From a virus: 64,000 bases of DNA. Both the position numbers and the translations under genes were made by a program. Below the pieces are notes generated by a model. That model did not search any database. It worked only from the letters and a program-made list of their open reading frames with translations, and was not told the origin of the DNA. Positions 16,292 through 38,900 of the stretch are shown piece by piece (the first letter of the stretch is position 1; every line of letters starts with the position of its first letter). The stretch lies in IMG/VR virus record IMGVR_UViG_3300021090_000723, positions 32,001-96,000 of that record; one strand, 5' to 3'.

Positions 16292-16381
16292 ATGCGCCTG
16301 TACGATTATTGCGTGTGGCTCGTGTTCGGGGGACCGCTTCTTCTCGCGATCCTGGTCGGCCTCATCAAGGTCTTCGCCTAG
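16292..16381 (+). CDS. Small hydrophobic peptide (29 aa), opposite strand to the late genes
   Basis: MRLYDYCVWLVFGGPLLLAILVGLIKVFA; AGGGA RBS; one TM helix. Confidence 0.55.
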   Translation: MRLYDYCVWLVFGGPLLLAILVGLIKVFA

Positions 16382-19300
16382 TCCGCTCCAGATATTCGGC
16401 GTTGAACATGCGGATGATACGTTCTTCCGCCTCGTTCAAGATCCGCACCTGCTCGTTGTAGCGCGGCCTCGCCATCCTGCCCTGCTCCAACGCCATCTTC
16501 GCCTGAGCGCGCGATGCCCTGATCTCGGACAGTTCCGTCCTGGCGTTGTTCGCGTCGTTGTAGAGCGAGAGCATTGCCCGATTCTCCTGGACGAAGCCAC
16601 GAGCCTCAGGTCTCCGGCCCTCGCGCTGGTAGTCCCTGGCATAGGCGCGCGACTGCTCGATCTTGTTGATCCGCTCGTAGAACGTCGCCTTGTCGATCCA
16701 GGGCGGCTTGGATGTGACGACGCGGCGCACGAAGGGGATGTCGTTGAACGTGATCGTGCTGGTCGGGTCGGCAAACTTCATGGGCAGATCGAGGAAGTTG
16801 CGCTCGTAGAACGTGCCTGCGGCGCCCCAGGCCACGCCGAACCCATAGTCCAGCCACTCGGGCGAAATCTCGATCAGTCCGGGCTCGACACCCGTTCCGC
16901 CCGAGGCCGTGCTCAGGAAGTCTGTGACCGCTTTGTAGGCGGGCGAGACCGAATTCCAATAGCGCTGGCTGTTCGGGACCTGTGGGCCGTACTGGGACTG
17001 CTCCGGCGCGATCGGCCGCCCGGCATAGTCCTTGTTCATGAAGAGATCGACGACCGGGTCCATGGTGGTGGGCGCGATCATGTTGAGCAGGTTCTGCGCG
17101 CCGCCAACCGGGTTGAACGAGTCCATGATGGTGATCGCGAGGTTGCCGGCCGACTCCAGCGGGTCCTTGCCACGCATAACCTCGGCGATCGAGCGGCCGA
17201 CGCCGTAGAAGATGTTGTAGCCGTAGGGCAGCGGGATCTTCGCCGCCACTCCGCCCTCGCTCGGCGTCATGACGATCAGGTTCCGGCTCTTATCGAACGG
17301 CGTCACCTTGTCGTAGAGCAGCTGGCCGTCATCGTCCTCATCGCTGACAAAGGCGTTGAGGAAGTCCAGCAGGAAGCCGGTCAGCACCGCGAACGCTGCA
17401 ACCTTGCGCACGCGCGGGGACTTCCAGGCGGTGAGCAACGTCGCGGTGCCTTGGATGCTCGCGTTATAGAACAGGTAGAGGCTGTTCATCAGCGGGCCCC
17501 ACGAGCCGCGGCGGTTGAAGTTCACCGTCAGGTTCTTGGCGAGAGACGCCGCCTTCGCCGGGGTGAAGCCACGCTCGCGCGCGTTCTTGTAGGCCGAGAG
17601 ACGGATGGCGTTTTCCACCCCGATGTTCGTGTTCTCGATGATGCGGCCGAGCGTCTTCATCGCCATGATCGGGTTGAGCTTGGACGTGCCGATCTCCCGC
17701 ATCTGACCGTCCAGGCGCTTCCGTAGCTCGAGCACGTCTTCCATCTGGTTGAAGTAGACGCGCCCGCCGTTCTCGCGGAACTCCTGGGCCCAACGGTCCC
17801 ACTCGGCCTGGTCCTTCGCCATCCACGGCATCAGGGTTTTGCCCGGCTCCGCCTTGAACGCGCTGCGGCTCGATGCCACCAGCGCCTTGCGGTAGTCCTT
17901 CACCGTTCCCTTGGTGATGCCCTTGATGTCGCCGTGCGCCTGGATGTTCGAGAGCGCGGTCTGCGCATCGCGGAAGGCGTTCGTGATGACGAACTCCGGG
18001 TTGAGCGTCGTGTTCACGTGGCTGAGAATCCGGTTGATCGCGCCAAAATTCCGGATCAGCAGGCTGATCTGATCCTGCCCCAGGCCCTTCAGGCCCTGGG
18101 CGAGATCGCGCGCGACCGGGTTGTTGCGGTTGAACGTGATGCGATGCTCTTGCCCGTCGATCTTGGTGGACAACGTGTACGGAGCATCTTCGGCGAGGAT
18201 GCGCCGGACCGGCCAGTATTGGACCTCCTGGCGGGCCTTGATCCACACCGGCCGCATCGCGACCTTGTCGACCTTCCAGAAGTTCTCGTTGGGCGCGGCC
18301 TTCGCCAGTTCGTAGATCGCGTTGCCGATACGATTGTTCTCTCCACGGATGATCGCTTCCTCGGCCTGCATGAACGCATAGGCCAGGATGTCACGCGCTG
18401 GCGACTGACGGCCGAAGGCACGGTGCGATTCCTTGCCCTTGACGTCGAAGCCCTTGCCCGGGCGCGGGCGGTCGGCCTCGACCTCAGGGTCCAGTTCGGC
18501 CACGCCGCGCAGCGGGACATAGTCGCGATAGGTGGCGCGCCAGGCCTCGGCCTGCTCTTCCGACATAAGACCCGCTTCGACGCGCGTGTTCAGCGCGAAG
18601 GCCAGGACGTCGTCGACCATGCCTGCCAGGGCGTCGAAGTCCGCGCGCCGGCCGGTCTTATCGACCTCGTCCATGATGCCGCGCGCATCTTCATCGCTCA
18701 TGCCCGAGCCAGCGATGCCCTCTTCCCGGAACTTCGGGTTGATCTCATTGATCCGCGCGTTGCGTTCCGGCGCGTGCCGGGCATAGAGGAACGTCTCAAG
18801 CTCTTCCCGGCTGATGCCGCGCTCGTGCATGGCGAGCACAAGCGGCCGGATTTGGCGCTCGAACAGATCCTCCAGCTTCGCGCCCTTGCGGCCGGACGAC
18901 AGTTCCTCGGCCAGATAGGCGTTCTCTTCCTCCGTGAGCGGACGACCCAGCATCTGCTCGATCGCCGCCTGCATGCGCGCGACCTTGAGATAGCGGTCCT
19001 GGAAGCCCACGCGCCACTTGTCGAACGACGCATTGATGGCGGAGAGCGAAGCGGCGCCCTTCAGCCGCTCCATCAGGGAGAGGTTCGAGTTGCGGAGATA
19101 GTCCACCACGCTCGGCTGCGGGGAGTCGGTGAACATCGTGAAGGCGTTCGCGCCGGGTGGCATGCGGCGGGCGAACAGGCCCTGGCCCTCCATCACGGAC
19201 TCGCGCATGGCAGGCGTCACGTCGAGCGAGTGCACGTCGATCACGCCCTGCTTCTTCTGTGGGTGGGTCTCGGCCACGGTCCACGACGGCTCCGATTCCT

Positions 19301-22300
19301 TGCCGGTGTCGATCTTGGTGGTCCCGACCTTCGCGTCCCACTTCTTGGCGTACCGGTTCAGGAACTGGGGCACGATCCTGTCGTAGAAGCCCTTCATGCC
19401 CTCGCCGCCGACGGTCAGGTCGAGGCCGGAGATTTCACGCACGCGCACACCAAGTCCGGCTGACCGCCCCTCTACTGGTGTTACAGCCAACAGCTTATCG
19501 GCAAGCTCCGCTCCGACCAGTTCCGCCAAGTCATCGCGCGACTCGATCTGACGATTGATGGCCTCCTCATTGCGCTTCCCGTAGGCAATGAGGTGCCCAC
19601 GTTCGAATGGCCCGTCCATCCGCGGGCGCCCAATCCCGCCGCTGACGTTGTCTGTCAGCCGGAGGCTGTTGACGTGCTTGGCAAGATTGTACCGCTCAGC
19701 CTGCTGCGCACCGGTCGTCCAGGCGAGGCGGTCGTAGCCGTTCTCGGCGGCGTAGCGCAGCATCCGCTTGAGGGCGATCTCGTGCCAGGTCGACTTGAAC
19801 GGCGCGTCCGGGACGCCGGTGCGCTTCTCGATCGCCTCGCCTTCCTTGATCGTCCAATTCGTCGTGTCCATCGGCGCTTGATCGTCACGATTCCACGCCG
19901 GCCGCCGCCCATGCTTATCGCGGATGAATTCCTGCGCCTGGTCCAGCGTCGGTCGAGTGCCTACCAGTTCGCCTTGATCGTCGAAGATTGAAAAGACCGG
20001 CGAACGGGTTTCCTTGACGCTATAGCCCTGGCGTCTGCCCTTCTGATGCCAATCGCTCTGGATCTCCTCGATGAAGAGCACCCTCTTGCCGTCGGCGTCT
20101 GCGCGATCCTTGAAGCGCACATGGGCCAGGATATTCGCCTCATCGAAGTGACCTGAGCGGAACTGGCCGCTGAGCGCATCGATCGCGAGGCTCCTGTCGC
20201 CGGGATACCGGCGCCGCATGACATCGATCCAATGCGCGTCGTTTGGGCCCTCGTATTTTTTCGTGACGCTATTGAGCACGATCGGGTCATCCCAGGTCCC
20301 AACCTTATGGTCGCCGTAGAAGACCGTGACGTCGCCCTGGGTGGTCGACCGACGATTGCGCTCGATGCGGACCTTGGCCGGGTCGAAGGGCACGCCGATC
20401 TGCGGCAGCGTCAGCAGCAGTTCGCGGTAGTTCTCGCCGCCAGGGAGGGTTTGGGACTCAAACTTGGTGGCGCCGCCCTCGGCGACGATCCCGGCATCAC
20501 GATGGATCGCTTCACGCGCTTCGATGAAGTCCCCGAAGTCGCCCAACTCTCGACCAGCCCGGATGGCATTTACGCGAGTAACCACTCCGCGCTGGTCGTA
20601 ATGGAACGTGACGCTAGCATCGTCAGCGTCAAAGGCCATTTCCGAATAATACCGTTGACCCTCAGGTTGGATGGTCCTTTCTTCATCGGGGAGCCAATCC
20701 TCGATATTCTCCGGATAGGGTCCCTCATCGTCGCCAGGCGCGCGGCCCTTCTCGACCTCCTCGATCTGGACGTTGTTCTCGCGGATGAAGTCGAGCAGCG
20801 CCTGCTTCGTGACCGGTCCCTGCTGGGACTCGAGCCATTCGTTCACGCCGGTCCACTCGGTCTCGTCCTTCGTGATGCCGCGCGCGTTCTTGATGAAGGC
20901 CTGCCACTGGATGCCCGACGCCTTCTCCTGCTTGGAGGCCTCGATCGTGCGCGCGAGCGTCGAGAAGAACGGCGCCGGCGGCTGTGGCTTCAGGGCGAAC
21001 TTCGCCTCGGACCTGGTGGGCCCGGCCTTGCCGCGCTTGCCGATCCTGCCGGACTCGATGCGCTTGAAGATGTCCTCTGGCGTCTGGAAGCCGCGGCCGC
21101 GGAAGAAGTTGCGCAGGCCCTCGAAGAAATTGCGCACGCGCTGGAGAACCTTTGTCGCCAGGCCTGCCTTCGCGAATTCGTTGCTAGGCTCATAGTTCTG
21201 CGCCGCGAACGCGATCGTTTCCTCGGTCTGGACGTCGGGCTTGTAGTATTTGCCGACGATATCGAACGTCCGTTTCCACTTGTCTTTTGCGGCCGCTTCG
21301 AGTGTGGCCCACTCTGACTTGGTGAAGAAGCCGAGATTGCGCAGGCCGTGGATGACCTCATGCGTGATGGTGCCGAACGGGTCCTTGGTATCGAGCGCAA
21401 TGGTGATGAGGTTTTTTGTGATGTCGAAGTGGCCGTCGGCCTCGTGGCCCTCAGGGTCCGCAATCGCATCGGCCACGCGCACGGCGAGCGGAAGGTTGCG
21501 ATTGACCAGATAGGCGCGGAGATCGGCGGCCAGCTGCTCGCGCTTCGCCTCGAACTCGGGGCTGAATGTGAAGGTGACGCCGTCGCCGGTCTCGATGACC
21601 GGTGGCGCCTGCGGGAGCCTTAGTCTTTCAAGGCCTCTTCCAACGCCTTCTGGGCGCGCGCCCTCGCCTGCTCCACCTCTGGGCTCGACGGCAAGTCCTT
21701 GGTCCTCGCCAAGAATCTCCGCAATGCCATCGGCGAACTGAGTGGGGGCGGTTCCTCGATCAGATACATTGACGACTCCAATCGCTTTCAGCGGCGAGGC
21801 GATGGCCTCGGCCCCGGCTTGCGCCATCGTATCGAACGTGGCCGCAAGGCTTTCCGGAACAACAACGGATGAACGGTAATCGATGAGGCCGGCGCGCGCT
21901 AGACCCACCGCGAAGTTATGGCTGAAGTTGGCGACGGCGAGGTTGCGATCGAGGCCCCGCTCGCGGATCAGCGAACGGCCGACGCGGCCCTGGGCGTTCT
22001 GCGATTCTTGCAGCATCTTGTTCAGGATGTCGGAGGGGCTGGACCACAGCGTCAGGTCCAGATCGGCGAAGGCCCGGCGCGTCTCGGGGGTGAGACGGGC
22101 GGCGTGCCACTGCCCCTCCGTGGTGTGGGCGATCATCCAGTCCAAGCCAGGGAGATCCAGCAACGTCAGGTCTGCGAAGGACAGGCCGTATGGCATCGTG
22201 TGGTTATGGTGGAACACGATCCGCGCATCTGGCTTGCTGAGCGCATCCTCGATCTTGCCCCGGAGGTTCACATATGTGTCCTTGCCGGAGGTCTCCGCCG

Positions 22301-25300
22301 CGATGACCGTCTGGGTGGCCGGGTCGTAGGCCACGGCCGCTTCGGTCTTGGTGCGCTCACCGAAGGCGCGGAGCCAGTCGCCGATCGCCACGTTCACGGC
22401 TGCTGGCGTCTTGGCCTTCTTCTTCGCGACGAATTTCCCGAGGTCGTCGGCCAGGTCCGAATTGCCCTCCACGATCCGGCGCGCGAGCATGCCCTCGTCC
22501 CTCGGCGGCCGGGCGGGCGGCGCCAAGCCCAGGCCTTCGCCAGGCGCCTCGCTCAGGATGAAGCCGGCGGAGCGGCGCGGCGGGAGGTCCGGCTCGGGCG
22601 CCCCGGCCACGGGCTGGGGATCGGCCTCGATGAGGCCAAGCGCCTGGTCGATCTTGCGCTGACGCTTCAGCGCCGCCTGGTATTGGTCCTCGCGCTCGAA
22701 CGGGACCTTGACCAGTTCCTTGAAGTCCACGAGCTTCTTCTTCGCCGTGTCGATCTTGGCCTGGCGATAGTCGATCTCGCCTGGGCGGCTCTTGAAGAAG
22801 TTCTCGATGCGGCTGATGGCGCCCAACTTGAGCGACTGGAGATCGAGCTCCACCTTGTCGGTCATCTTGCCGTGGATCACGGCCTGCGGCTGGTAGTAGC
22901 CGTCGACCTCAACCGAGATCGGGAAGCCGTACATCTTGCCGATCGGGATGTCCTCGATCTCGGCGTTGCGCTTCCGGCCCTGGGCCTCGTTCTTGGACTT
23001 CTGGAGGTTCCAGGCCTTCTCGATGATGTCGGCCAGCGCCTTGGACGCATCGACGCGCTTCTCATAGACCGTGCCCAGGATGGTGTAGTGCGGCTTGTCC
23101 TTGCGTTCGAGGTAGGCGGCGTGGTCGGCTTTGACCCGCCCGCGCGCCTCTTCCATCCCGGCGATCTCGCCCGGCAGGCGGTGGATCTGCCACTCCATTT
23201 CGTGGATGTTGTCGTAGTGCGCACCGCGCAGGCGCGAGAGACGATCGACGTCCGAGTCCGCCTTCGCCTTGTCCAGGATCAGCGGGTTGCCCGCGGCGAG
23301 GGCCTTGGCCTCGGCGAACGACAGCACCTGCTCATCGATGTCTTCGGCCTCGCGGACCGAGGGATCGCCGCGCTTGATCTGGTTGATGAAGCGGGCCTTG
23401 CGCTCGACGGTCTGCCACATATAGGCGTCGAACGATCCTTCGGTGACGTAGCGGAAGAGGTCGATCTCTTCGTTCGTGTTGCCCTGACGCTCGATGCGGC
23501 CCTCGCGCTGCTCGATGTCCGATGGGCGCCACGAGGGGTCGACGTGGTGGAGCGCCTTCAGGCGGTCCTGCACGTTCGTGCCGATGCCCATCTTCTCGGT
23601 CGAGCCCAGCAGGATGCGCTTGCGGCCGGCGCGCACGTCGGCGAAGAGGTTCGCCTTCTTCTGATCGGTGTTGGCGTCCTGGACGAACGCGACATCGTTC
23701 GCGTTCACGCCCTTCTTGACCAGTTCCTCCTTGATGTCGCGATAGATGCTGTAGGCCACGTTCGACGGGACCGACATATCGCAGAAGATGATCTGGGTGT
23801 GCTTTTCCTTGGCGCCCGCCTTGTAGATGCGCGCCGCGTTGCTCGCGACCTCGGAGGCCTTCCGGACCTTTTCCTTCCTCGCGGCCGGGTCCACCACACG
23901 CAGATCGAGCGATGCCTTGCGGCCGTCGGTCGAGATCAGCAGCATGTTGTCTTCGTCGGGCGTCACCTCGCGCTTGCGGACCGCCTCGGCGCGCTCGCCG
24001 ATCTCCGCGATGTAGGCCTTGAGCGCATCGCTCGCGGGCACGATGATGGTCTTGGGCCCGCCGCCGCTGATCTTCGGGAGCTTCACCTGGCCGGTCGCGA
24101 TCAGGTCGTCCTTGCTCACCAGGTCCGAGAACTGCCGGTACATCGAGATCAGTTCGGGGATGTTGCGGAAGCGCGCGAAGCGGGTCTTCAGCATCGCCTT
24201 TCCGCCCTCGGGCGTGATCTCGGCTTGCGTGACGGTGTCGCCGAAGGTCGAGGCCCAGGCGTCGAAGTGCGAGAGGCCGCGCTCGGCCAGCCCGCGCGGC
24301 TGGAGATAGCGCTGCATCGTGTACATTTCGGCCATCGAGTTCGAGATCGGCGTGCCGGTCATGAACATGAGGCCGCGGCCCGGCGTCATCTTGTCGATGT
24401 ACTTGGTCTTCAAATAGAGATCGAACGCCCGCTGGCTCGACGGCGGGTTCATGTTCGTGATCTTCGTCGCGAATTCCAGGTTCTTGAACAGGTGGGCTTC
24501 ATCGACAAAGATGCCGTCGACCCCCATTTCCTCGAACGACAGGCCCCGGTCCTTGTCCTTGGCCTGCATCAGTTCGCGGAGCTTTTCCTCACGGCGCTTC
24601 TTCGCGGCTTCCAGCTGCTTGACCGTCGGGCTGCGGCCCCCGGTGTCGGTCTCGCGCGCGGCACGGATCAGGTCCGCATATTCGGCGATCTCGTCGCGGA
24701 TATAGTCAGCCTGGAACTTGGCCGACATGCCGACGCGCTCGAAACTGGAGTGCGTCATGATGATCGCGTCCCAGTTTCCGGCCGCCGCACGGGCGACGAA
24801 GCGACGGCGATTGTCGCCAGCGAAGGCGCGCTCGTCCGCCACCAGGATGCTGGCGTTCGGGTACAGCTGCATGAACTCGCGGCTGAACTGCTCCAGCATG
24901 TGGTTCGGGACGGAGAACAGCGGCTTGCTCAGCAGGCCTATGCGCTTGGCCTCCATGGCGGCCGCGATGGCCGTGAACGTCTTGCCGGCGCCCACCAGGT
25001 GGTCGAGCAGCGTGTTGCCCGAGACCAGGTAGCGCCAGACGGCCTTCTTCTGGGTGGAGCGCAGTTCGATCGTGCTGCTGGAGCCAGGAAGCGTCAGGTG
25101 ATCGCCGTTGAAGGTGGCGACCCGGAGGTTGTTGAAGTTGTCGTTGTAGAAGCGGGACAGCCGCGCACCGCGCTCTGGGTCCTTCCAGATCCACTTGGAG
25201 AAGCGCTCCTTGATGTCGTTCTGCTTTTCCTGCGCCACGATGGTGGCGTTCATGTCCGTGTGGGTCTTGCCCTCGGAGTCCTGCCAGGAAATGACGGTCG

Positions 25301-28300
25301 ACTTCTGGTTAAGCGCATCGCGGATGAGGTCGATGCCGCGGCGCGCGATCGACTTGCCCTCGGCGCGCGAGGTCGTCCAGTTGACCGACCAGGTCTGGGT
25401 GTTGGGCGCGGTGCCCTCCTGGGCAATGCGCACGTGCCAGGTCGCTTCCTTCGGCACGTATTCAACGATGGCCTCGGTCTCGAGCAGTTCGGAAATGAAC
25501 CCCTCGACGTCCGAGTTGGGAATCCACGGCGTGCCCATGCGCACCGCGATCTGAGACGGCTTCAGATCGACTGGCTGGACGACTTCGAGCGCCTTGACGT
25601 TCTCGGCCCACTCGGGCTCGCCCTTGGCAGCGTCACGCGCGAAGGCCAACTTTCCGCGCACGTTGCCCGAGAGATAGACCTCGGACGGCTCGTAGGCGCC
25701 GGTCGCCGGGTTCTTGAAGATGCGGCCCTTGAGTTCGTTGAGGAACGTGCTCGGCTGACGGCCCAGGATTTTTGCCATGTAGGGCACGTCGACTATGCCC
25801 TTCATGTTCATGGACGCGATCAGCGCCTCGTCCGGCGTGTTCACGCGGAGGATTTCGCGCGTCGGCTCGACCACGCGATCGGTGAAGATCGGGCCTTTGA
25901 TGCCCTCGTTCTTCTCTTCATCGAAGCGCTCGAGCGCGGAGACCAGCGCCGCGTCCGGATCGTCACGGAACGCCAGCATGTTCGGGTAGCGGCGGTATTC
26001 GCGCACCTCACCGTCCGGCATCGTGCGCCGGCTGATCTGAACCTGGTTGATGTAGCCGAACGCCTTGACGAACTGGGCGTAGAGTTTCCCCAGTTCCTTC
26101 TGCGGCGCGACCCACGGGGCCGTGCCCTTGCCTTCCCACTCGCCGCGCTGCGCGGTCAAGATCTCGCGGGCCTTGTCGCGGAGCCTGATGAGCAGGCGCA
26201 CGCGCCCGGCCTGGCCGTCGGAGAGTTCGACCGGCACGGAGGATTGCAGCACGCGCTGGAACAGCTTGCCGTCACGTTCGAAGAAGGCGTTGTCCTTCAC
26301 CGTGTCGGGCGGCGGCGCCAGGTCATCGTATGTGTCCACGTCCCCGGCCTCGGGATCGAAGCGGAGCGCGGACTTCTCCATCATGGCCTGGACGGCATTG
26401 GCGATCTTCTCGCGCAGGCCCGTTGCCGTTCCGGTAACGGTGTATTCGTCCTCGCGGTACATGCCGCGCGTGACGGCGTTCGTCCCCAGGATCATGTTGG
26501 GGTTGTCTTTGAAATACTGATTGACCGTCGCCGGGCTCGTGCCGACGCGGAACTCCTTGGCCTCCAGCCAATCCGGCTTCCCGGCAGGCTCGCCCTCCTT
26601 CCGCTTACGGATGAACAGGATGTCCGTGACGACTTGGGTCCCGGCGTTCTCCTTGAAGGCGGTGTTGGGGAGACGGATGGCGCCGATCAGGTCGCCGCCG
26701 GCGTCCCGGATCATGGTGCGCGCGGTCTTGTCCTGCGAGTCCATCGTGTAGCGGCTGGTCACGAGCGCAAGCACGCCGCCAGGTTTGACCAGCTTCAGGC
26801 TCTTGAAGATGAAGTAGTTGTGCAGGCTGAGCGGGCGGCCCTTATTGTACATCTTGTCGGCCGGGCGAATGTCGCCGAACGGCACGTTGCCGATGACAAG
26901 GTCCACGCTGTCTTCCGGAAGCGCGGTGTCCTCGAAGCCCTGCACGAAGATGCGCGCCTCGGGGTAGAGCGCTCGCGCGATCTTGCCGGTGACGTCGTCA
27001 AGCTCCACGCCGATGAACTTCGGATCGCTGCCCTTCGGGCGCATGCCCATGAAGTTGCCGATGCCCATGCCGGGTTCGAGCACGTTGCCCGAGCCGGTGA
27101 AGCCGAGTTCGGTCACGCCGTCCCAGATGCCGCGAACCACATCCTGGCTGGTGTAGTGCGCGTTGATGGTGGTCGCGCGAGCCGACGCGAACTGCTCCGG
27201 CGTCAGCATGGCCTTCAGCTGCTCGCGGTAGGGGATCAGGCCGTAGTCGAGCCCGCGGCCCTCATCGAAGATCTTGGCGAGGCCCGTGGCGCCCCAGCCC
27301 ACGTAATGGGCAAGCTGCTCCTGGTCCTCACGGCTGGCGAGTTGCCCGCCCTTCTCCAGGTCGAGAGCGACCCGGATGGCTTCGATGTTCTTGACGATGC
27401 GCTGGGCTGGACTGCCGGTGGCATAATCGGCGTCTTCAGCGATGCGGAAGTTTAGTCCTCGTATCCCCCGCTTGGCCCGATCCCCGAGGCTTCCCTCTCG
27501 CTCATCGGGAGATACTCCCTCAGGGCGTCCGACTCCGCCATCAGGAGGGCGCTCCGCTCCAGCTTGATCCGTCTCTCCAGAGGCTCGTCCTGGCTCACTT
27601 GCGGAAGTTGGCTGTTGACCCAGTTCGCTATCGATTCCGATAGGTCCTGGACCCTCTGCTCCAGCTTCCCCTCCGCCTTCAGGCCCGCGAACTCCTGTGG
27701 TCGGTGCACCCGCAGGTGCCCTTCCACCTTGCTCCGGTAGCTTTCCGGGCTGACCTTTTGCACGTTTTTCCCTTTCGAGCTCGGCCCAGCGCTTCGGAAT
27801 ATCGATCTTTTTGAGCGCTTCTTCAACTGCCTGCTTGGAGTCGGGCAGCGGCGTGTAGGTCTTTTCCTTGAGCGATCCGTCCTCGTTCCACTCCAGCTGG
27901 TCGAGCAGGCCGCGCCACATCAGGGCGAAATTGGCGCGCTCTTCCTCGGCGGGATAGGGCGTGCCGCGATAGCCGGCTTCCTTGGTCGTCTGGCCTTCCG
28001 CCACCCAGCCATTGACCAGGTAGGGCGAGGTCTGCCCCTTGGCGGCCAGTTCATCGTAGATGAAGGACTCGAACGAGCGCGCCCACAGTTCCTCGGGCCG
28101 CACCCAGTATTTGCCAAGCTCTTGGGCGTTGCGCTTGAACTTGGTCGTGAGCTTCGCGCTCCACCCCTCGTTCTGCCAAAGGTGGTCCACGTACTGCTCG
28201 GCGGTCTTGAGCGGGCCCAGGCCTTGCCTGCCCCGGATGTGCGACCGGCCGGTGAGCAGATTGTCGACCATCTTGATCGCACCCTCCACGTCCCAGGTGT

Positions 28301-31300
28301 GGGAGAGCGTGCCGTTGACGCTTGCGAGCAGGGCGCGCGCACTCTGACCGGCGGCCAGCAGCGCCTTCTTCTCGGCCTGGAGCGGCTTGACCTTGTCGGA
28401 CAACTCCATCGAGTTGATCGTGCCCTCGCGGTTCCGCTTCACCAGCGCCTCGATCTCCTTGTCGATCGCCGGGACCCGGACGCCGCCTGCGCGCAGGTTG
28501 AAGTCGAGCGCATGGCCCCATTCGTGCGACAGGGACCCGTCGCCCTTGGTCTTGGTCAGGTTGATGACGTTGGTGTCTGGCTCGTAGTGAGCGGAGCCGA
28601 ACCCAGATCCGCGCGAGCCGAACGCCAGGCCCAGCTTACCGCCGATGGAGATTGCCTTCGCTGGCACACCCATTATCTCGGCGAAGTCCATGAGCGCGTC
28701 GTAGGCGGCGTTGACGTGCGCCTGGCCCTCGCGGCCGGTGACCCAGTTCCCGAACTCGACGCCGCGGAAGCCGAAGGTCTTGCGGAAGTCCTCGGCCTTG
28801 ACGTTCTTGCCCGCCTTCCGGCGCTCGGGCAGGCCCGGGCGCGTGATGTCCTCGATCCGGATGCTCGGCCGCACGAGGGGCGTGGCGCGTGTCGGCATCG
28901 TGTTGTCGTCGCGGAAGTGGGGCAGGCCTTCGTCCAGGCGCCACAGGTTCGGCCACGAATAGTGGTGCAGGTACGGCCGCAACGTCTTCTGCGCCCAGTC
29001 CGTGGCGATGACGCGCGCCGACATGCCTTCCGGGCGCTGGACCTCTTTGACGATCAGGCGCTTGAGCGCGGCGTGGATGTCCTCGACGTTCTTCGCGCCG
29101 GCGAGCGCATCGCCCAGGATCTCCATCGCGCCGATGTATTCGGCGGCGTTCTCCAGGATGGTCTCGCGCTTCTCCTCCCAGCGCTTCTCCAGCGTCTTTC
29201 TGAACGGCGTGCGCCATTTGCCACGGCCGCCGCCCTGGTTCTTACCCTCCTGCTCGGTGAAGGTGACGAACGAGCGGGAGACGAAGTCGGCGAAGACGTG
29301 GGCGCCGGTCGTGGCGTCAGCCGCCAGGCGGGAGCGGAGGTCCCGCGCGTCCAGAGCCTGCTCGAGCATCTTGTCCAGATCCTCGATCTTCTCGACCTTG
29401 GCTTTGGCCTGGGCGCGCTTGCCCGCCATGGCCTCGCCCACGTCCGTCATCTTCGGCATGGGCGCGCGGCGGTCGGTGACCGGCTTCCTTGGTTCTTTGA
29501 CCGGCCTCTTCTCGGGCGCCTCGATTGTTTCACGTGAAACATCAACGGCCTGGGGCAGAATCGCGGTGGTCGTGTCGCCCTCTTCGATCCACCGTTTGAA
29601 GTCGGCCACGTTCATTTCGAGGCCGCCGTTCTTCCGGCGCTGCGGCCCCGAGCCGTCCGAGTACCCGGCGTCATAGACCGCGATGGCCTGCTCCGGGGTG
29701 TCGACCGCGGCGATGGCCTTGTGCTCATCGAACTTGCCGGTCTTCGGATCGTACTGATCGATGACGAAGACCTTGTCGCTCTTCAGGTTCGGTCCGAGGT
29801 AAATGTCCAGCTTTTCCTGCTGGTTAGGCGGGGCGTTCGGCTTCGCATCCGCACCGATCGAGCGCTTGATGTAGCCGTAGTCGGCCAGGATGTTGACGTT
29901 CGTCCAGATCGGCTTGCCGTCCTCGCCCTCGGGCCCAAGGCGATCCGTGCCCTTCGGCGTCTCGATAGTGATGTCCAGGCCGTTCCAGTTCTCGATGTGG
30001 CCCTTGGCGTAATTCCCAGCCTCGCGCTGCGCCTCGGTCGTCTCCTTGGCGACCGCGTCACGCGCCGGCTGGATGTCTTCCTCGGTCTCCGGACGCTTGA
30101 CGGGGTTGGTCTTGGTGCCTTCCGGCGCCCGGGCGACGTGCTTGATCTTCGCAAGCTGCTCTTTGGCGCTGGCGATGAGGCCGAGGGCGTCCCGCTTCGC
30201 AGAGTCGGGCCAGCTGCCCGACATTGCCCGCTCGACATAGCTGGTCACATAGGCCTTGGCTTCGTCCAGCGTGGCGAATTCGTTCGCGTGCGAGCCGCCC
30301 ATGCCGCCCGCTTGGCTGGTGATGTTGTACGAAATGCGCGGGACCGTGTAGCGGGCCTCCTGCGGGTCGTAGACGATCATAAACGCGAGGTTGCTGCTGC
30401 TCTTCTTCGCCTTGGCCGGGAGCAGTTTGCCGGTGTCGAGCACCACTTCGCCGCGCTCCATGACGGCCTCGTGCTCGTCCCGGGCGACCTTCTCGCGCGC
30501 CCTCCGGGCGTCGTGCTCGGCATCCTCGGCGGCGCGCTGGCTTTTGGCTTCCTTGGCGATCGTCGGCCACTTGTACTCAAGGTCGGACTGCTCGGCCTTC
30601 GCCTTCGCGATGTCCACTTTGTAGCGCTCGATCTGGCTCTTCCACGTGTCGAGGTTGATCTTGGATGGCTTCTTCGGTCCCGCCAGGGCCTCGTCCATGC
30701 GCTTCTGCGTCTCGGCCATGTTGTGCTGGTAGGCCGAGAGGTGGAATTCGCGCTGGCGGTAGTCGTCCAGATCCTGCGCCATCGGATGCTCGGGGGCTTC
30801 CGGCTGCTCGCGCTCCACCAGGTAGTCGCCAATGTCCTTGACCAGGTCCGGGAACTTCTTGCCGTACCACTCCAGGCGCAGGCCCTTGGCCGCGGCGCGC
30901 GCGGCGTAGATCGACTTGTCCCAGCCCGGCTCCGGGGTGAAGCGCTCTTCCTGCGCCTCTTCCTCGGCGCGATCGGCCTCCATCTGGACGATCTCGTCCG
31001 TGGTGGGCTCCATCACGTCTTCGCCGGACTTCTCGCCGGGCGCGAGTTCGCGCGCTGGCGGGGTTATGAGACCAGGCAGCGGCTCAACGGGACCTTCGCC
31101 TTCGCGTTGCGCCATGCGCCGGGCTTCATCGGCGCGCTCATCGGCAATGCGCGTTTCCAGCGCCGCGCGCATCAGCCCGGTTTTGGTGTCGTAGTTCCGG
31201 AGGATGTGCTCCTGGAACACATCGGCGGCTTCCACGCCGAACGAGTCGGCATAGGCGCCCCACCAGTTCACGAATTCCTCAGGGGCGGCGGTGAAGGCCT

Positions 31301-33665
31301 CCTTGGCCTCTTTATCGAGCCGGTCCTTGGCCTTGGCGTTCTTCGGCGGCTTGCCGGTGGCGGGATCGTTGCCCGAGTCGATGTAGGCCTGCGCCGCGCG
31401 CAGCTGGTTGATGGGCTCTTCGAAGTGCCGCAACGCCTCATCGTGGAAGGCGCGCAGCGTTTCGGTGCGCTCTTCCGGCGTCTCGGCCGGGTTCTCGTCC
31501 CAGAAGCCGGGGCGTCCGGCTTCGCGCAGCGCTTCATCCGCAGGCTCGGGGAACGTCTTCTTGAAGTCGAAGGGCAGTCGTTTGCCGCTCGACTTCTTGC
31601 CCTTTTCCTTGGCGAGATCGGCGGCCTCGCGCTCGATCTGGGCCATTTCCGCCTCGACGTCCTGGGCGGGCTTGGTGCCCGGCACGGTGAACGTCTCCTT
31701 GGGCGGCGTCTCCCTGATCCATTCCTCACTAGGCTCACCTGGCGGCTGGGTGAGATCGGCGCGCTTGACGTCGCCGGTCTTCACGTTGTGCCAGCCGATC
31801 TGGTTGTCCTCTTCGTCGAAGAGCGCTTGCCAGTCCTTGCCACGGGGCTTGGGCGGCATTTCTGCCTTCGGCGGCTGGGTTGGTGGCTTGGGCGGTGGCT
31901 CTGGAGCCTGTTCGGCCGCACCCGCTGGCGGCTCTCCTGGCGCGCCTGGGCGCTCCATCGTGGGCTCGACGCGCGGCTTTTCCGGCTCGCCCTCGCCCCG
32001 GACGAACGGGTGCGTGGCCGCCGCGATCGTGCCGCCCATCACGCCGCCGGTGAGGCCCGCGGCGATCACTGCGCGGGTGGCTTCACCGAACGTCATCTTC
32101 TCGTTCAGGATGCCCATGGAATAGCCGGTCTGGAGCACCTGGGTGAACATTTCCTGGATGCCTTCGGCGCCTGCCGCCTTGAGCGTGCGCGGCAGGAACT
32201 TCCCGCCCTCCTTGATGATGATCCCGAGCGGGATTTTCTCGCCGGCTGTTTCGGCGAAGGCCATGAACGCGCCGTCGAGCGCGGCCTGGGTGGGCGAGCG
32301 GCCGTTCTTGGCGGACTCGCTGTACTGCTCCAGGCCGACCTGGCTTCCCATCATGGCGAGGCCGATGGCCGGGCTTCTGGTCAGGATGGACGCGCCGACG
32401 GTCGCCAGCATGGGCACGCCGGACTCGATGGCGTTGAAGTAGACACCCTTGATGCTGAGTGGATCGAGGTCTTTCGGGGCGCTCTCCTCGAGATCCTTGA
32501 GCGCGGCGAAGGCGATCTTGCCGCCGATGGTGCTGCCAGCGTCCTTGACCGCCTTCTCGCGCGCGGCGAGCATGCCCTGGTACGCCTCTTCGACCTGTGG
32601 CGGCAGCTTGCCGGTGAACGGATTGACCTGTTCGATCGGATAAGGGACCGGGGCCTGGTCCATGGCGAGAATCGCGCCGCCGATCATGTTCTTCAGGTGC
32701 AGCGGCACGCGCTCGGCGGCCGCCATGGTCAGTTCACCGAAGCTGGGCCCGGGGTCCTTCTTGCCGATGCCCGCGATGAACGCGCGCGCCGCGCCGGCGC
32801 CGACGCCTTCCACGTCGGGTTGCTCGATGGGCTTGAACGGCTTCTGTTTGGCCGCGAACGCCTCGGCGGCCGCGGGCGTCTCGAACTTGCCCATGTGCTG
32901 GCCGGTCTGCTTGTAGCGCTCGATGATCGCTTCGTCTGACTCGCCCTCGGTCAGCTGCGGGAGCACGGTCTCCTTGAAGATGCCGTTCTCCGTGAACTCG
33001 AACGAGCGCGTGCCCGCAAAGTCGCCCTTGTAGTTGCCCGGTTCGAGCAGGCCCGGCTCCTGGCGCACGAAGTCCGGCTTGTCAGCGACCGCCTGCGGCG
33101 CAGCGGTGATCGGCTCTTCGGAAACGATCGCATACGGATCATCGCCGCCGGGCGGCGCAGCGGAGATCGCCGTCGGGTCGATCGGCTCTTCGGAAACGAT
33201 GGCATACGGGTCGTCCTGCGGCCCCTGAGACATTTGGACCACGCGCTGGACGTAGTCGTTCGTCTCCGGGAACGGGATCTGGGCGATGAACTCGGCTTCG
33301 CTGATCTCGCCCTTGCGCGGATCGCCCAGGCGGTTGAGCCAGCCTTCGAGCGCGCCCGGGCCAGCGTTGTAGGCCGCACCCGCGAGCGCCGGGCTTCCAT
33401 AGCGCTCAAGCATGGCGGCCGCATAGTCGACGCCTACGCGGTCAAGCTCTTCCGGAGTGTCGTTCGCCGCCGGGCGGACGCCAAAGCCCGGGTCCTTCGC
33501 GGTGCCCGGCATAACCTGCATTTCGGAGCGCGCGCCCTTGGGAGAGACCGCGTTGATCGGGCTCGCTTCCGCGCGCCGGATGATGCTGGGGAAATCGACA
33601 GGCGTGGGCGCGAGCCCTCCGCCGTCCATCGGTTCTTCCGAGACGACGTCCCATTCGTTGACCAT
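16365..33665 (-). CDS. Giant polyvalent virion/ejection protein (5766 aa): SLT transglycosylase, PPase-like, LPD1-like, N6-adenine MTase + SNF2 helicase (DarB-like), JAB-like, zincin, LPD38-like
   Basis: AVSPKGA..EMQVMP/AAYNAGPG/ET.DYV (SLT); ADYGYI...GAD..D.Y.GP...DEHK (PPase); FGFRGVEFGNW..HEWGHALD; VLEPGMGIGNF and GNVPFG (MTase); VGAGKT, DEAH, TGTPISN, QREGRIERQGN (SF2); HHNH.....S.AD (JAB); HEVIH; IEEIQSDWHQ; NFNRRG..LYLFYNASIQG. Confidence 0.9.
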   Translation of the reverse strand: MVNEWDVVSEEPMDGGGLAPTPVDFPSIIRRAEASPINAVSPKGARSEMQVMPGTAKDPGFGVRPAANDTPEELDRVGVDYAAAMLERYGSPALAGAAYNAGPGALEGWLNRLGDPRKGEISEAEFIAQIPFPETNDYVQRVVQMSQGPQDDPYAIVSEEPIDPTAISAAPPGGDDPYAIVSEEPITAAPQAVADKPDFVRQEPGLLEPGNYKGDFAGTRSFEFTENGIFKETVLPQLTEGESDEAIIERYKQTGQHMGKFETPAAAEAFAAKQKPFKPIEQPDVEGVGAGAARAFIAGIGKKDPGPSFGELTMAAAERVPLHLKNMIGGAILAMDQAPVPYPIEQVNPFTGKLPPQVEEAYQGMLAAREKAVKDAGSTIGGKIAFAALKDLEESAPKDLDPLSIKGVYFNAIESGVPMLATVGASILTRSPAIGLAMMGSQVGLEQYSESAKNGRSPTQAALDGAFMAFAETAGEKIPLGIIIKEGGKFLPRTLKAAGAEGIQEMFTQVLQTGYSMGILNEKMTFGEATRAVIAAGLTGGVMGGTIAAATHPFVRGEGEPEKPRVEPTMERPGAPGEPPAGAAEQAPEPPPKPPTQPPKAEMPPKPRGKDWQALFDEEDNQIGWHNVKTGDVKRADLTQPPGEPSEEWIRETPPKETFTVPGTKPAQDVEAEMAQIEREAADLAKEKGKKSSGKRLPFDFKKTFPEPADEALREAGRPGFWDENPAETPEERTETLRAFHDEALRHFEEPINQLRAAQAYIDSGNDPATGKPPKNAKAKDRLDKEAKEAFTAAPEEFVNWWGAYADSFGVEAADVFQEHILRNYDTKTGLMRAALETRIADERADEARRMAQREGEGPVEPLPGLITPPARELAPGEKSGEDVMEPTTDEIVQMEADRAEEEAQEERFTPEPGWDKSIYAARAAAKGLRLEWYGKKFPDLVKDIGDYLVEREQPEAPEHPMAQDLDDYRQREFHLSAYQHNMAETQKRMDEALAGPKKPSKINLDTWKSQIERYKVDIAKAKAEQSDLEYKWPTIAKEAKSQRAAEDAEHDARRAREKVARDEHEAVMERGEVVLDTGKLLPAKAKKSSSNLAFMIVYDPQEARYTVPRISYNITSQAGGMGGSHANEFATLDEAKAYVTSYVERAMSGSWPDSAKRDALGLIASAKEQLAKIKHVARAPEGTKTNPVKRPETEEDIQPARDAVAKETTEAQREAGNYAKGHIENWNGLDITIETPKGTDRLGPEGEDGKPIWTNVNILADYGYIKRSIGADAKPNAPPNQQEKLDIYLGPNLKSDKVFVIDQYDPKTGKFDEHKAIAAVDTPEQAIAVYDAGYSDGSGPQRRKNGGLEMNVADFKRWIEEGDTTTAILPQAVDVSRETIEAPEKRPVKEPRKPVTDRRAPMPKMTDVGEAMAGKRAQAKAKVEKIEDLDKMLEQALDARDLRSRLAADATTGAHVFADFVSRSFVTFTEQEGKNQGGGRGKWRTPFRKTLEKRWEEKRETILENAAEYIGAMEILGDALAGAKNVEDIHAALKRLIVKEVQRPEGMSARVIATDWAQKTLRPYLHHYSWPNLWRLDEGLPHFRDDNTMPTRATPLVRPSIRIEDITRPGLPERRKAGKNVKAEDFRKTFGFRGVEFGNWVTGREGQAHVNAAYDALMDFAEIMGVPAKAISIGGKLGLAFGSRGSGFGSAHYEPDTNVINLTKTKGDGSLSHEWGHALDFNLRAGGVRVPAIDKEIEALVKRNREGTINSMELSDKVKPLQAEKKALLAAGQSARALLASVNGTLSHTWDVEGAIKMVDNLLTGRSHIRGRQGLGPLKTAEQYVDHLWQNEGWSAKLTTKFKRNAQELGKYWVRPEELWARSFESFIYDELAAKGQTSPYLVNGWVAEGQTTKEAGYRGTPYPAEEERANFALMWRGLLDQLEWNEDGSLKEKTYTPLPDSKQAVEEALKKIDIPKRWAELEREKRAKGQPGKLPEQGGRAPAGAPTTGVRGPEGGGEAGAEGPGPIGIDSELGQQPTSASEPGRASGETDQAGAERPPDGGVGRPEGVSPDEREGSLGDRAKRGIRGLNFRIAEDADYATGSPAQRIVKNIEAIRVALDLEKGGQLASREDQEQLAHYVGWGATGLAKIFDEGRGLDYGLIPYREQLKAMLTPEQFASARATTINAHYTSQDVVRGIWDGVTELGFTGSGNVLEPGMGIGNFMGMRPKGSDPKFIGVELDDVTGKIARALYPEARIFVQGFEDTALPEDSVDLVIGNVPFGDIRPADKMYNKGRPLSLHNYFIFKSLKLVKPGGVLALVTSRYTMDSQDKTARTMIRDAGGDLIGAIRLPNTAFKENAGTQVVTDILFIRKRKEGEPAGKPDWLEAKEFRVGTSPATVNQYFKDNPNMILGTNAVTRGMYREDEYTVTGTATGLREKIANAVQAMMEKSALRFDPEAGDVDTYDDLAPPPDTVKDNAFFERDGKLFQRVLQSSVPVELSDGQAGRVRLLIRLRDKAREILTAQRGEWEGKGTAPWVAPQKELGKLYAQFVKAFGYINQVQISRRTMPDGEVREYRRYPNMLAFRDDPDAALVSALERFDEEKNEGIKGPIFTDRVVEPTREILRVNTPDEALIASMNMKGIVDVPYMAKILGRQPSTFLNELKGRIFKNPATGAYEPSEVYLSGNVRGKLAFARDAAKGEPEWAENVKALEVVQPVDLKPSQIAVRMGTPWIPNSDVEGFISELLETEAIVEYVPKEATWHVRIAQEGTAPNTQTWSVNWTTSRAEGKSIARRGIDLIRDALNQKSTVISWQDSEGKTHTDMNATIVAQEKQNDIKERFSKWIWKDPERGARLSRFYNDNFNNLRVATFNGDHLTLPGSSSTIELRSTQKKAVWRYLVSGNTLLDHLVGAGKTFTAIAAAMEAKRIGLLSKPLFSVPNHMLEQFSREFMQLYPNASILVADERAFAGDNRRRFVARAAAGNWDAIIMTHSSFERVGMSAKFQADYIRDEIAEYADLIRAARETDTGGRSPTVKQLEAAKKRREEKLRELMQAKDKDRGLSFEEMGVDGIFVDEAHLFKNLEFATKITNMNPPSSQRAFDLYLKTKYIDKMTPGRGLMFMTGTPISNSMAEMYTMQRYLQPRGLAERGLSHFDAWASTFGDTVTQAEITPEGGKAMLKTRFARFRNIPELISMYRQFSDLVSKDDLIATGQVKLPKISGGGPKTIIVPASDALKAYIAEIGERAEAVRKREVTPDEDNMLLISTDGRKASLDLRVVDPAARKEKVRKASEVASNAARIYKAGAKEKHTQIIFCDMSVPSNVAYSIYRDIKEELVKKGVNANDVAFVQDANTDQKKANLFADVRAGRKRILLGSTEKMGIGTNVQDRLKALHHVDPSWRPSDIEQREGRIERQGNTNEEIDLFRYVTEGSFDAYMWQTVERKARFINQIKRGDPSVREAEDIDEQVLSFAEAKALAAGNPLILDKAKADSDVDRLSRLRGAHYDNIHEMEWQIHRLPGEIAGMEEARGRVKADHAAYLERKDKPHYTILGTVYEKRVDASKALADIIEKAWNLQKSKNEAQGRKRNAEIEDIPIGKMYGFPISVEVDGYYQPQAVIHGKMTDKVELDLQSLKLGAISRIENFFKSRPGEIDYRQAKIDTAKKKLVDFKELVKVPFEREDQYQAALKRQRKIDQALGLIEADPQPVAGAPEPDLPPRRSAGFILSEAPGEGLGLAPPARPPRDEGMLARRIVEGNSDLADDLGKFVAKKKAKTPAAVNVAIGDWLRAFGERTKTEAAVAYDPATQTVIAAETSGKDTYVNLRGKIEDALSKPDARIVFHHNHTMPYGLSFADLTLLDLPGLDWMIAHTTEGQWHAARLTPETRRAFADLDLTLWSSPSDILNKMLQESQNAQGRVGRSLIRERGLDRNLAVANFSHNFAVGLARAGLIDYRSSVVVPESLAATFDTMAQAGAEAIASPLKAIGVVNVSDRGTAPTQFADGIAEILGEDQGLAVEPRGGAGEGARPEGVGRGLERLRLPQAPPVIETGDGVTFTFSPEFEAKREQLAADLRAYLVNRNLPLAVRVADAIADPEGHEADGHFDITKNLITIALDTKDPFGTITHEVIHGLRNLGFFTKSEWATLEAAAKDKWKRTFDIVGKYYKPDVQTEETIAFAAQNYEPSNEFAKAGLATKVLQRVRNFFEGLRNFFRGRGFQTPEDIFKRIESGRIGKRGKAGPTRSEAKFALKPQPPAPFFSTLARTIEASKQEKASGIQWQAFIKNARGITKDETEWTGVNEWLESQQGPVTKQALLDFIRENNVQIEEVEKGRAPGDDEGPYPENIEDWLPDEERTIQPEGQRYYSEMAFDADDASVTFHYDQRGVVTRVNAIRAGRELGDFGDFIEAREAIHRDAGIVAEGGATKFESQTLPGGENYRELLLTLPQIGVPFDPAKVRIERNRRSTTQGDVTVFYGDHKVGTWDDPIVLNSVTKKYEGPNDAHWIDVMRRRYPGDRSLAIDALSGQFRSGHFDEANILAHVRFKDRADADGKRVLFIEEIQSDWHQKGRRQGYSVKETRSPVFSIFDDQGELVGTRPTLDQAQEFIRDKHGRRPAWNRDDQAPMDTTNWTIKEGEAIEKRTGVPDAPFKSTWHEIALKRMLRYAAENGYDRLAWTTGAQQAERYNLAKHVNSLRLTDNVSGGIGRPRMDGPFERGHLIAYGKRNEEAINRQIESRDDLAELVGAELADKLLAVTPVEGRSAGLGVRVREISGLDLTVGGEGMKGFYDRIVPQFLNRYAKKWDAKVGTTKIDTGKESEPSWTVAETHPQKKQGVIDVHSLDVTPAMRESVMEGQGLFARRMPPGANAFTMFTDSPQPSVVDYLRNSNLSLMERLKGAASLSAINASFDKWRVGFQDRYLKVARMQAAIEQMLGRPLTEEENAYLAEELSSGRKGAKLEDLFERQIRPLVLAMHERGISREELETFLYARHAPERNARINEINPKFREEGIAGSGMSDEDARGIMDEVDKTGRRADFDALAGMVDDVLAFALNTRVEAGLMSEEQAEAWRATYRDYVPLRGVAELDPEVEADRPRPGKGFDVKGKESHRAFGRQSPARDILAYAFMQAEEAIIRGENNRIGNAIYELAKAAPNENFWKVDKVAMRPVWIKARQEVQYWPVRRILAEDAPYTLSTKIDGQEHRITFNRNNPVARDLAQGLKGLGQDQISLLIRNFGAINRILSHVNTTLNPEFVITNAFRDAQTALSNIQAHGDIKGITKGTVKDYRKALVASSRSAFKAEPGKTLMPWMAKDQAEWDRWAQEFRENGGRVYFNQMEDVLELRKRLDGQMREIGTSKLNPIMAMKTLGRIIENTNIGVENAIRLSAYKNARERGFTPAKAASLAKNLTVNFNRRGSWGPLMNSLYLFYNASIQGTATLLTAWKSPRVRKVAAFAVLTGFLLDFLNAFVSDEDDDGQLLYDKVTPFDKSRNLIVMTPSEGGVAAKIPLPYGYNIFYGVGRSIAEVMRGKDPLESAGNLAITIMDSFNPVGGAQNLLNMIAPTTMDPVVDLFMNKDYAGRPIAPEQSQYGPQVPNSQRYWNSVSPAYKAVTDFLSTASGGTGVEPGLIEISPEWLDYGFGVAWGAAGTFYERNFLDLPMKFADPTSTITFNDIPFVRRVVTSKPPWIDKATFYERINKIEQSRAYARDYQREGRRPEARGFVQENRAMLSLYNDANNARTELSEIRASRAQAKMALEQGRMARPRYNEQVRILNEAEERIIRMFNAEYLERTRRRP
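21620..21769 (-). CDS. Nested overprinted small gene (49 aa) in +1 frame of the giant ORF
   Basis: GGAG-7 nt-ATG; MYLIEEPPPLSSPMALRRFLARTKDLPSSPEVEQARARAQKALEEALKD; GC3 bias shifts to this frame. Confidence 0.6.
   Translation of the reverse strand: MYLIEEPPPLSSPMALRRFLARTKDLPSSPEVEQARARAQKALEEALKD
27452..27763 (-). CDS. Nested overprinted gene (103 aa) in +1 frame of the giant ORF; TnpV-like helical protein
   Basis: AAGGGA RBS before GTG; Y.....HL..HRP.....L...GKL pattern; nested frame is GC3-rich while the host frame is a Gly/Pro/Glu linker. Confidence 0.75.
   Translation of the reverse strand: MQKVSPESYRSKVEGHLRVHRPQEFAGLKAEGKLEQRVQDLSESIANWVNSQLPQVSQDEPLERRIKLERSALLMAESDALREYLPMSEREASGIGPSGGYED
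29526..29541. promoter_or_regulatory. parS: Perfect chromosomal-type parS site
   Basis: TGTTTCACGTGAAACA, 16/16 match to the bacterial parS consensus palindrome; encodes VSRET in the giant ORF. Confidence 0.85.
33109..33215. repeat. Direct repeat (about 35 nt, 72-nt period) encoding DDPYAIVSEEPI twice
   Basis: ATCGGCTCTTCGGAAACGAT at 33109 and 33181; a third degenerate copy (WDVVSEEP) at the N-terminus. Confidence 0.8.
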
Positions 33666-38240: not shown

Positions 38241-38315
38241 TGGCAGCTGCTGAGGGAGTCGAACCCTACGTCCCCGGAGTCAAAGTCCGGTGCCCTACCG
38301 TTAGACCAAGCAGCC
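38241..38315 (-). tRNA. trnQ: tRNA-Gln(UUG)
   Basis: CCGGA-CT TTG AC-TCCGG; TTCGA T-loop; CCA end. Confidence 0.92.
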
Positions 38316-38316
38316 G

Positions 38317-38392
38317 TGGCGCGCCCAGGGGGAGTCGAACCCTCCGTTTGCCGATTGAGAATCGGCGTTCCTGACCGTTAGAAGATGGGCGC
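38317..38392 (-). tRNA. trnE: tRNA-Glu(CUC)
   Basis: GCCGA-TT CTC AA-TCGGC; CCA end. Confidence 0.92.
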
Positions 38393-38394
38393 AT

Positions 38395-38468
38395 TGGCGC
38401 AGCTGCGGGGAATCGAACCCCGGTTGTCGGAGTGAAAATCCGCTCTCCGGCCACTAGAGGACAGCTGC
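38395..38468 (-). tRNA. trnE: tRNA-Glu(UUC)
   Basis: GCGGA-TT TTC AC-TCCGA; CCA end. Confidence 0.9.
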
Positions 38469-38471
38469 GAT

Positions 38472-38545
38472 TGGCGAGGGTGCGACGAATCGAACGCCGG
38501 TCATCGGGTTTGGAAGCCGAGGCCCTACCACTGGGCGACACCCCC
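38472..38545 (-). tRNA. trnW: tRNA-Trp(CCA)
   Basis: TCGGC-TT CCA AA-CCCGA (C31-C39 mismatch); G73; CCA end. Confidence 0.85.
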
Positions 38546-38550
38546 TGAAG

Positions 38551-38624
38551 TGGTGCGGACGGAGAGGATCGAACTCTCACCCCCGGGTTGGAAGCCCGGT
38601 ACTCTGCCGTAGAGCTACGTCCGC
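38551..38624 (-). tRNA. trnG: tRNA-Gly(UCC)
   Basis: CCGGG-CT TCC AA-CCCGG; A73; CCA end. Confidence 0.92.
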
Positions 38625-38625
38625 G

Positions 38626-38696: not shown

Positions 38697-38701
38697 AAAA
38701 A

Positions 38702-38893: not shown

Positions 38894-38900
38894 TTGGAAA

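Follow-up and report, generated by a model that had tools for sequence, protein, structure and literature searches.

Phages carry embedded gene pairs in which both genes lie on the same strand, as with Rz1 inside Rz of lambda (in the +1 frame) and genes B, K and E of phiX174. In the Rz/Rz1 and phiX174 pairs the embedded gene is the evolutionary newcomer, and both products are known to be made. Another phage protein of relevance here, P1 DarB, is an anti-restriction protein. Overprinting, as it is treated in two reviews (PMC8227390, PMC6195259), denotes the de novo appearance of reading frames over existing genes. Polyvalent proteins, those of the phage type included, and the list of their domains have been described for phages and for conjugative elements by Iyer et al. 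2017 (PMC5512222), in whose text the words TnpV, overlapping and frameshift are absent. For TnpV, an Xis-like role has been postulated but is unproven (PMC3158075).

The locus described here resembles the Rz/Rz1 and phiX174 pairs in that a larger gene contains, in a different frame, the whole of a small gene with a start of its own, and both frames are open. Unlike in those pairs, the embedded gene appears to be the older partner and the surrounding frame the new one, and the arrangement is known from sequence alone. As in overprinting, in the form in which those reviews portray it, one frame shows the genome's codon signature and a wide phylogenetic spread and the other is compositionally odd, disordered and restricted. 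In contrast to overprinting so portrayed, the new frame would here be a spacer that joins two older coding regions across a whole gene, and not a new gene.

The giant gene and the frame nested in its linker

The window, a 64,000-nucleotide stretch of DNA, comes from an IMG/VR virus record of 104,903 bases that is 88% complete. It contains a giant ORF (table 1) whose 5766-aa product carries six Pfam domains, namely SLT, InPase, LPD1, an Eco57I-type N6-adenine methylase, a ResIII helicase and LPD38. Many unrelated enzymatic domains are thus combined with LPD domains, including the phage-only InPase and LPD38, and the genes around the ORF are virion genes (head morphogenesis, tape-measure-like and tail lysozyme). 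In this domain content, and in its position among virion genes, the host gene is like the phage polyvalent proteins (PMC5512222). The Eco57I-type methylase match covers aa 2251-2318 and the ResIII match aa 2885-3075, and homologues carry the same methylase-helicase module. This module, which follows the nested gene, resembles P1 DarB. Read by eye, its first in-frame start-type codon is the GTG of 'HYVGWG', about 50 codons in; because there is no start codon of its own near its beginning, the methylase module would depend on read-through.

Fully inside the giant ORF, between the LPD1 domain and the DarB-like module, lies a complete ORF on the same strand and in the +1 frame relative to ORF 16365-33665. 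It has its own start (GTG, 27763-27761) and its own stop (TAA, 27454-27452), which enclose 103 codons, and therefore has the structure of an embedded gene. The TAA overlaps the L-N codons of 'LNFRIAEDADY', the conserved beginning of the methylase module, which agrees with an earlier note made from the sequence, according to which the nested frame stops where the methylase region begins. In the most conserved dual-coding piece the small frame encodes the tail IGPSGGYED and the stop, and the host frame reads DRAKRGIRGL; the host motif over this piece is also present in the proteins P0003-P0006 and in the related locus L010.

Ahead of the GTG stands the hexamer AAGGGA, a putative ribosome-binding signal of the nested gene that the earlier note had pointed out together with the GTG. 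It is unchanged in L002, an independent assembly of a closely related locus, and is similar to the aagggagg that precedes the gene of a 307-aa neighbour. As a Shine-Dalgarno sequence it is weak and non-canonical, and it is located within a translated ORF. No promoter-like or terminator-like sites were found in 27200-28300. The single RNA run, X16, contains 4% of the words and covers small conserved pieces only, outside the nested ORF.

Table 1. Features of the giant gene and of the frame nested in it, in window coordinates.
Feature	Positions	Strand	Basis or remark
Host gene, 5766-aa phage-type polyvalent protein	16365..33665	minus	ORF, Pfam
LPD1 domain, aa 1851-1925, just upstream of the nested gene	27891..28115	minus	Pfam PF18796, E 6e-14
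Upstream extension of the open +1 frame	27764..27826	minus	ORF list; reaches back to TTG
Shine-Dalgarno-like AAGGGA	27769..27774	minus	5 nt ahead of the GTG; read from sequence
Host-frame low-complexity linker, ~aa 1963-2071	27453..27779	minus	Composition, rare codons, GC3 flip
Nested TnpV-like gene, 103 aa	27452..27763	minus	ORF and translation, homologues, GC3, selection, AF2
Most conserved dual-coding piece	27452..27484	minus	Alignments A2, A3
DarB-like N6-adenine methylase and helicase module	24441..27452	minus	Begins 'NFRIAEDADY', aa 2072

Relatives of the nested protein, alone and nested

A phmmer search of 1.84 billion representatives with the nested protein returned 18 matches, the best being 58% identical (E 1e-27). 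With the exception of one spurious repeat protein, these are proteins of 64-146 aa that align end to end, and most share the C-terminus. A word-indexed search added 12 further small proteins, all single-copy 'hypothetical' entries. The family is marked by an N-terminal 'Y...HLxxHRP', a helical core and a near-invariant tail, 'AES[DE]ALREYLPxDE...IGPSGGYED'. AF2 run on the family alignment predicts four helices (pLDDT 87, pTM.74), as expected from the helical product proposed earlier; the conserved C-terminal tail has low pLDDT in the monomer model. None of the 1.84 billion representatives searched with phmmer is a large protein with a TnpV-like domain in frame, and an in-frame domain broken by two compensating frameshifts was ruled out on this ground.

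The earlier note had called the small protein TnpV-like. Against the Pfam TnpV model (PF14198) it scores 16.1 bits (E 0.011), below the gathering threshold of 27, with residues 9-78 aligned to profile positions 26-95; the genome search gave 15.4 bits. TnpV is nevertheless matched by 8 of the 18 family members, and two of them lie above the threshold, P0131 (38.1 bits) and P0137 (42.1 bits), whose E values against the nested protein were 2.5e-10 and 7.7e-5, respectively, in the search of 1.84 billion proteins. The kinship thus holds through these relatives and fails for the nested protein taken by itself, which is best described as TnpV-like, a distant branch outside the Pfam family that is linked to it transitively. 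Like TnpV of Tn4451 and of Clostridial elements, which is carried by mobile elements, it is a small helical protein of the ~100-110 aa class. Unlike TnpV, it extends past the Pfam model in a conserved C-terminal tail specific to its family, it falls below the Pfam threshold, and it has no TnpX-type neighbour: no resolvase (serine recombinase) or tyrosine-integrase domain was found in the 105-kb record (88% complete).

Other searches for kin returned little. Scans of the viral collection for close relatives, whether by the nested protein, by the methylase piece or by alignment A3, gave no match, and tblastn against annotated phages and plasmids gave none for the nested protein, nor against plasmids for P0136. 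The nested protein has no PHROGs family. In PDB and BFVD, Foldseek found nothing at E <= 0.001, and a sequence-profile search of the PDB matched designed helical proteins and talin only. The top structural match of the model in VIA-align was 2apl_A (PG0816; Z 6.4, rmsd 3.1, 67 residues aligned), a Z within the chance range for helical bundles. PG0816 of Porphyromonas gingivalis (PDB 2apl) is a DUF1896 protein. No sequence match to DUF1896/PG0816 was found in Pfam or the PDB, and what hints, weakly, at a DUF1896 kinship is this structural match at Z 6.4.

Nine loci with relatives (L002-L010) were recovered. Six metagenome loci, L003-L008, have the small gene by itself, with neither of the other frames open; the host-equivalent frame contains 1-8 stops in the five loci counted, compared with 0 in the nested cases. 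Beside these stand-alone relatives lie genes of the kind usual in small mobile elements, encoding HTH_17, a Rep-like protein and an IS1595 zinc ribbon, and no methylase-helicase was found in their short contigs. Because the small gene occurs alone elsewhere with its other frames closed, the nested gene appears to predate the linker that covers it. In L002, whose giant protein is 89% identical, and in L010, whose giant ORF is 56% identical, the gene is nested as in the window and the host frame is open; in L009 the gene order is as in the window, but there are many frameshifts. Between the window and L010, 27 of 42 residues of the nested tail are identical, compared with 17 of 42 in the host frame. 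The host-frame linker is otherwise alignable only among close kin, the exception being the shadow of the nested tail.

The stand-alone members also bear on where translation of the nested gene would begin. The +1 frame remains open upstream of the GTG, and one could propose that it has no start of its own and that ribosomes slip into the +1 frame near 27826-27763 and terminate at the TAA, giving an SLT-to-LPD1 product with a TnpV-like C-terminal domain. Although the open stretch ahead of the GTG measures 21 codons in the window and ~30 in L002, and P0122 was called with a similar upstream extension, the N-termini of the stand-alone members align at the GTG. The piece 27764-27826 varies and has no slippery or shift-prone motif common to the window and L002, and its only A-rich run (CTC AAA AAG) would, judging from the sequence, favour a -1 shift into the third frame. 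We regard such a shift as very unlikely. The extension is probably excluded from the translated small protein, given where the family N-termini align, and we infer independent initiation at the GTG.

Nesting could be followed further in the giant proteins P0004, P0005 and P0006, which are 45-50% identical, by decoding the +1 frame from their linker protein sequences rather than reading it from DNA. Their linkers can encode a full-length homologue in the +1 frame, with best decoding scores of 403, 350 and 343 against shuffled nulls of 273 +/- 7, 256 +/- 9 and 282 +/- 12, respectively. In P0004 and P0005 the decoded frame has no forced stops and retains AESDAMREYLP and IGP[ST]GGYED. The same decoding found no nested homologue in P0007-P0016, where the largest z was 3.6 (P0007). 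An exact co-coding test of each small against each giant protein, in which representatives come from different contigs, returned the window's own pair only. Pfam does not list LPD1 for P0005 and P0006; for this reason the nested gene and the methylase-helicase appear to travel together behind different upstream parts. In the tree of the small family the main group lacks resolution, and a single origin of nesting cannot be read from it.

Coding signature and selection in the two frames

Over the whole giant ORF, codon positions 1/2/3 have GC of.64/.44/.86. The host frame departs from this between ~27815 and 27426, with averages of.82/.66/.42 and.84/.68/.36 in the most extreme 150-nt interval (host GC3 range 0.36-0.46). 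The nested frame has about.68/.40/.84, that is, the genome's normal signature. This GC3 flip at the nested ORF is the sole strong flip in 17.3 kb. Rare codons make up 46% of the host frame over the nested ORF compared with 6% elsewhere in the gene, and 10 of 103 codons in the nested frame, for which the frame-wise GC comparison gave a GC3 of 0.83, bearing out the GC3-rich +1 frame noticed earlier.

The host frame has the low-complexity linker composition that the earlier note had ascribed to it. Among 104 linker residues there are 26 G, 13 P, 11 A, 11 E and 10 R, and 88% of the host-frame residues over the nested ORF are G/P/E/R/A/S/D/T/Q. Relative to the nested gene this linker lies in the -1 frame, and it contains zero stop codons. 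Wider spread and genomic codon usage thus fall to the nested frame, and a restricted, compositionally deviant product to the host frame, the pattern by which overprinting is recognized. The nested ORF is far beyond chance, since the GC3 flip is unique in 17.3 kb and full-length homologues are found with E down to 1e-27. A chance ORF in GC-rich DNA was ruled out by the homologues. So was an assembly frameshift, by two independent samples (L002 and run X2) in which the frames are identical, without indels.

We then compared the window with L002. Over the nested ORF 33 of 309 nucleotides differ, without an indel, and the null was obtained by placing 33 mutations at random with the observed transition share kept. 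In the nested frame 13 residue changes were observed, against 23.0 +/- 2.3 expected (P about 1e-4), and in the host frame 21 against 21.9 +/- 2.4 (P 0.42), the basis of the test being this one close pair (33 differences) together with two variant sites. The nested-frame changes between the window and L002 are also milder by BLOSUM. One of the differences, TCG-to-AGC, keeps the Ser of the nested 'AESD' and turns the host VG into ER. In the freshwater run X3 both listed differences are nested-synonymous and host-nonsynonymous, and the independent run X2 has zero differences within the nested ORF and no indel. The nested frame is under purifying selection, and the host-frame residues evolve without constraint, at the neutral rate. 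The proposal that the nested gene is real therefore gains support from homologues, codon signature and selection, and the close homologue shows no interruption of the +1 frame.

A small gene that had been engulfed in the fusion and had ceased to be expressed could for a while look similar, its signature and open frame having yet to decay. The weak Shine-Dalgarno sequence and the great rarity of the family would fit such a dead relic, and a coding signature may outlast function for some time, but residue changes in the nested frame run at about half the neutral expectation with the host frame neutral, and the switch between Ser codon families preserves the nested Ser. Moreover, the frame and all family motifs persist where the giant proteins are only 45-56% identical. 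Decay in progress is in our view improbable.

The neutrality of the host frame raises the converse question of whether the 5766-aa ORF is three genes that merely appear fused, the GC-rich -1 frame being stop-free by accident. If the nested protein and the local codon usage are taken as fixed, chance alone would leave the host frame open in 12% of instances. This probability of 0.12 is far from negligible and, like the neutral evolution of the host residues, speaks for such an accident. The host frame is, however, open in all lineages that have the nested gene (the window, L002, L010 and P0004-P0006) and closed 1-8 times in the stand-alone relatives, and this recurrence suggests selection for an open host frame. 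Ribosomes must in any case read through, no stop being present, the methylase module offers no in-frame start-type codon (by eye) until 'HYVGWG', ~50 codons in, and two independent samples agree on the frames. We give three separate genes hardly any credence.

Proposed origin and function

We consider it likely that this is a dual-coding segment in which an older gene has been run over by the giant ORF, its -1 frame serving as a tether and the small gene being translated separately from the GTG. The small TnpV-related gene of 103 aa would have come first, before the host-frame linker, and the giant ORF would have arisen, or been rebuilt, by reading straight across it. That the giant ORF fused across the small gene follows from the existence of the small gene on its own elsewhere, and the suggestion that neighbouring genes fused across a retained gene stands. 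The -1 frame of the small gene would thereby have become a G/P/E-rich spacer of ~105 residues tying the LPD1 part to the methylase-helicase, a spacer that would need only to be open and flexible. The small gene would keep its own start (AAGGGA, 5 nt, GTG) and yield a separate four-helix protein.

The unstructured, invariant C-terminal tail (LPxDE...IGPSGGYED) of this protein would dock onto a partner, and a docking peptide for a partner protein is, we infer, its most likely role. That the partner is the adjacent methylase-helicase module is a guess, and one we hold to be somewhat doubtful. Alternatively, the partner may be a DNA-processing protein of the host or of the element, by analogy with the stand-alone members in small mobile elements. 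None of the results supports the role of chaperone, inhibitor or partner of the DarB-like module that the earlier note had proposed. The short contigs of the stand-alone relatives lack a methylase-helicase, which argues against an obligate or universal partnership with that module. A still stronger version, in which the DarB-like module has the nested protein as its dedicated partner (an assembly or packaging adaptor, or an inhibitor that quiets the module in the producing cell) and the gene-in-linker arrangement was itself selected, seems to us unlikely. If it were true, nesting in the linker would tie the presence, dose and inheritance of the small gene to the methylase-helicase module, and a gene in a linker would be a recurring way for polyvalent proteins to carry helpers.

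Embedded same-strand genes and overprinting are already known. What is unusual here is the reversed polarity, the use of overprinting as a means of fusion and the site inside a polyvalent protein. The usual polarity of overprinting would be turned around, with the embedded gene old and constrained and the surrounding frame a newcomer that serves as a tether only. A conserved protein at the nested ORF seems to have escaped standard gene finding, because a protein called from this ORF of the window was among the results of neither protein search. Further genes of this sort may be concealed in phage and plasmid giants, in long disordered linkers whose codon signature is shifted. A family with an invariant C-terminal peptide directly before a DarB-like module is a candidate for interaction experiments. 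The locus also points to a possible route by which giant polyvalent proteins grow, in which neighbours would be fused by read-through of an intervening gene and that gene would be kept intact.

Relatives and occurrence in other metagenomes

In the relative L010, which corresponds to contig DATKMS010000186.1 (positions 1-4998, GC content of 64%), a single open frame spans the whole contig and is 56% identical to the methylase-helicase of the window, while the start of the contig carries the tail of the nested gene. This contig, binned as Candidatus Margulisiibacteriota, probably represents part of a phage or prophage, and its binning may be wrong. The relative L009 (690-4287) retains the order seen in the window, the small gene followed by the methylase-helicase, with at least six changes of reading frame; the small gene is broken too. 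Either this locus is a decayed copy, or its assembly contains many errors.

Window positions 26800-28600 are also contained in a freshwater-sediment metagenome (X2), whose sample is not the likely source of the window, with no differences from the window within the nested ORF. A close variant of positions 27527-27893 is present in a freshwater run from 2025 (X3).

Codon signatures elsewhere in the giant gene

Codon-position GC did not indicate a second frame in the two P/E/A-rich linkers of the giant protein listed in the table, which are ordinary low-complexity linkers. A second, weaker shift of codon signature was found at 21576-21785 on the minus strand, where GC1/2/3 of the host frame is.82/.57/.55. 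It coincides with a 49-codon ORF in the +1 frame, which begins with ATG (MYLIEEPPP...). Blastn of this piece against L002 returned no match, which gives no measure of conservation either way.

The antisense open frame is interpreted as a side effect of the high GC3 of the coding strand and not as a gene. It terminates at the exact point of the coding-frame flip, and its end marks the frame change in the giant gene.

Window coordinates of the features discussed
Feature	Position	Strand	Details
P/E/A-rich linker of giant protein	31836-31985	minus	GC1 high, GC3 stays.66-.68
P/E/A-rich linker of giant protein	31026-31175	minus	GC1 high, GC3 stays.66-.68
Open frame antisense to giant gene	21918-27455	plus	1845 codons
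tRNA array	38241-41104		28 genes

Phage tRNAs and linker codons

The tRNA array includes Gly-UCC, Pro-UGG, Ala-UGC, Gln-UUG, Glu-UUC, Arg-UCU and Leu-UAA tRNAs, and the A-ending codons that these read are rare in the GC-rich phage. Such codons abound in the host-frame linker, where GGA is used 15 times and GCA, CCA, CAA and GAA also occur, so the phage-encoded tRNAs may aid its decoding.
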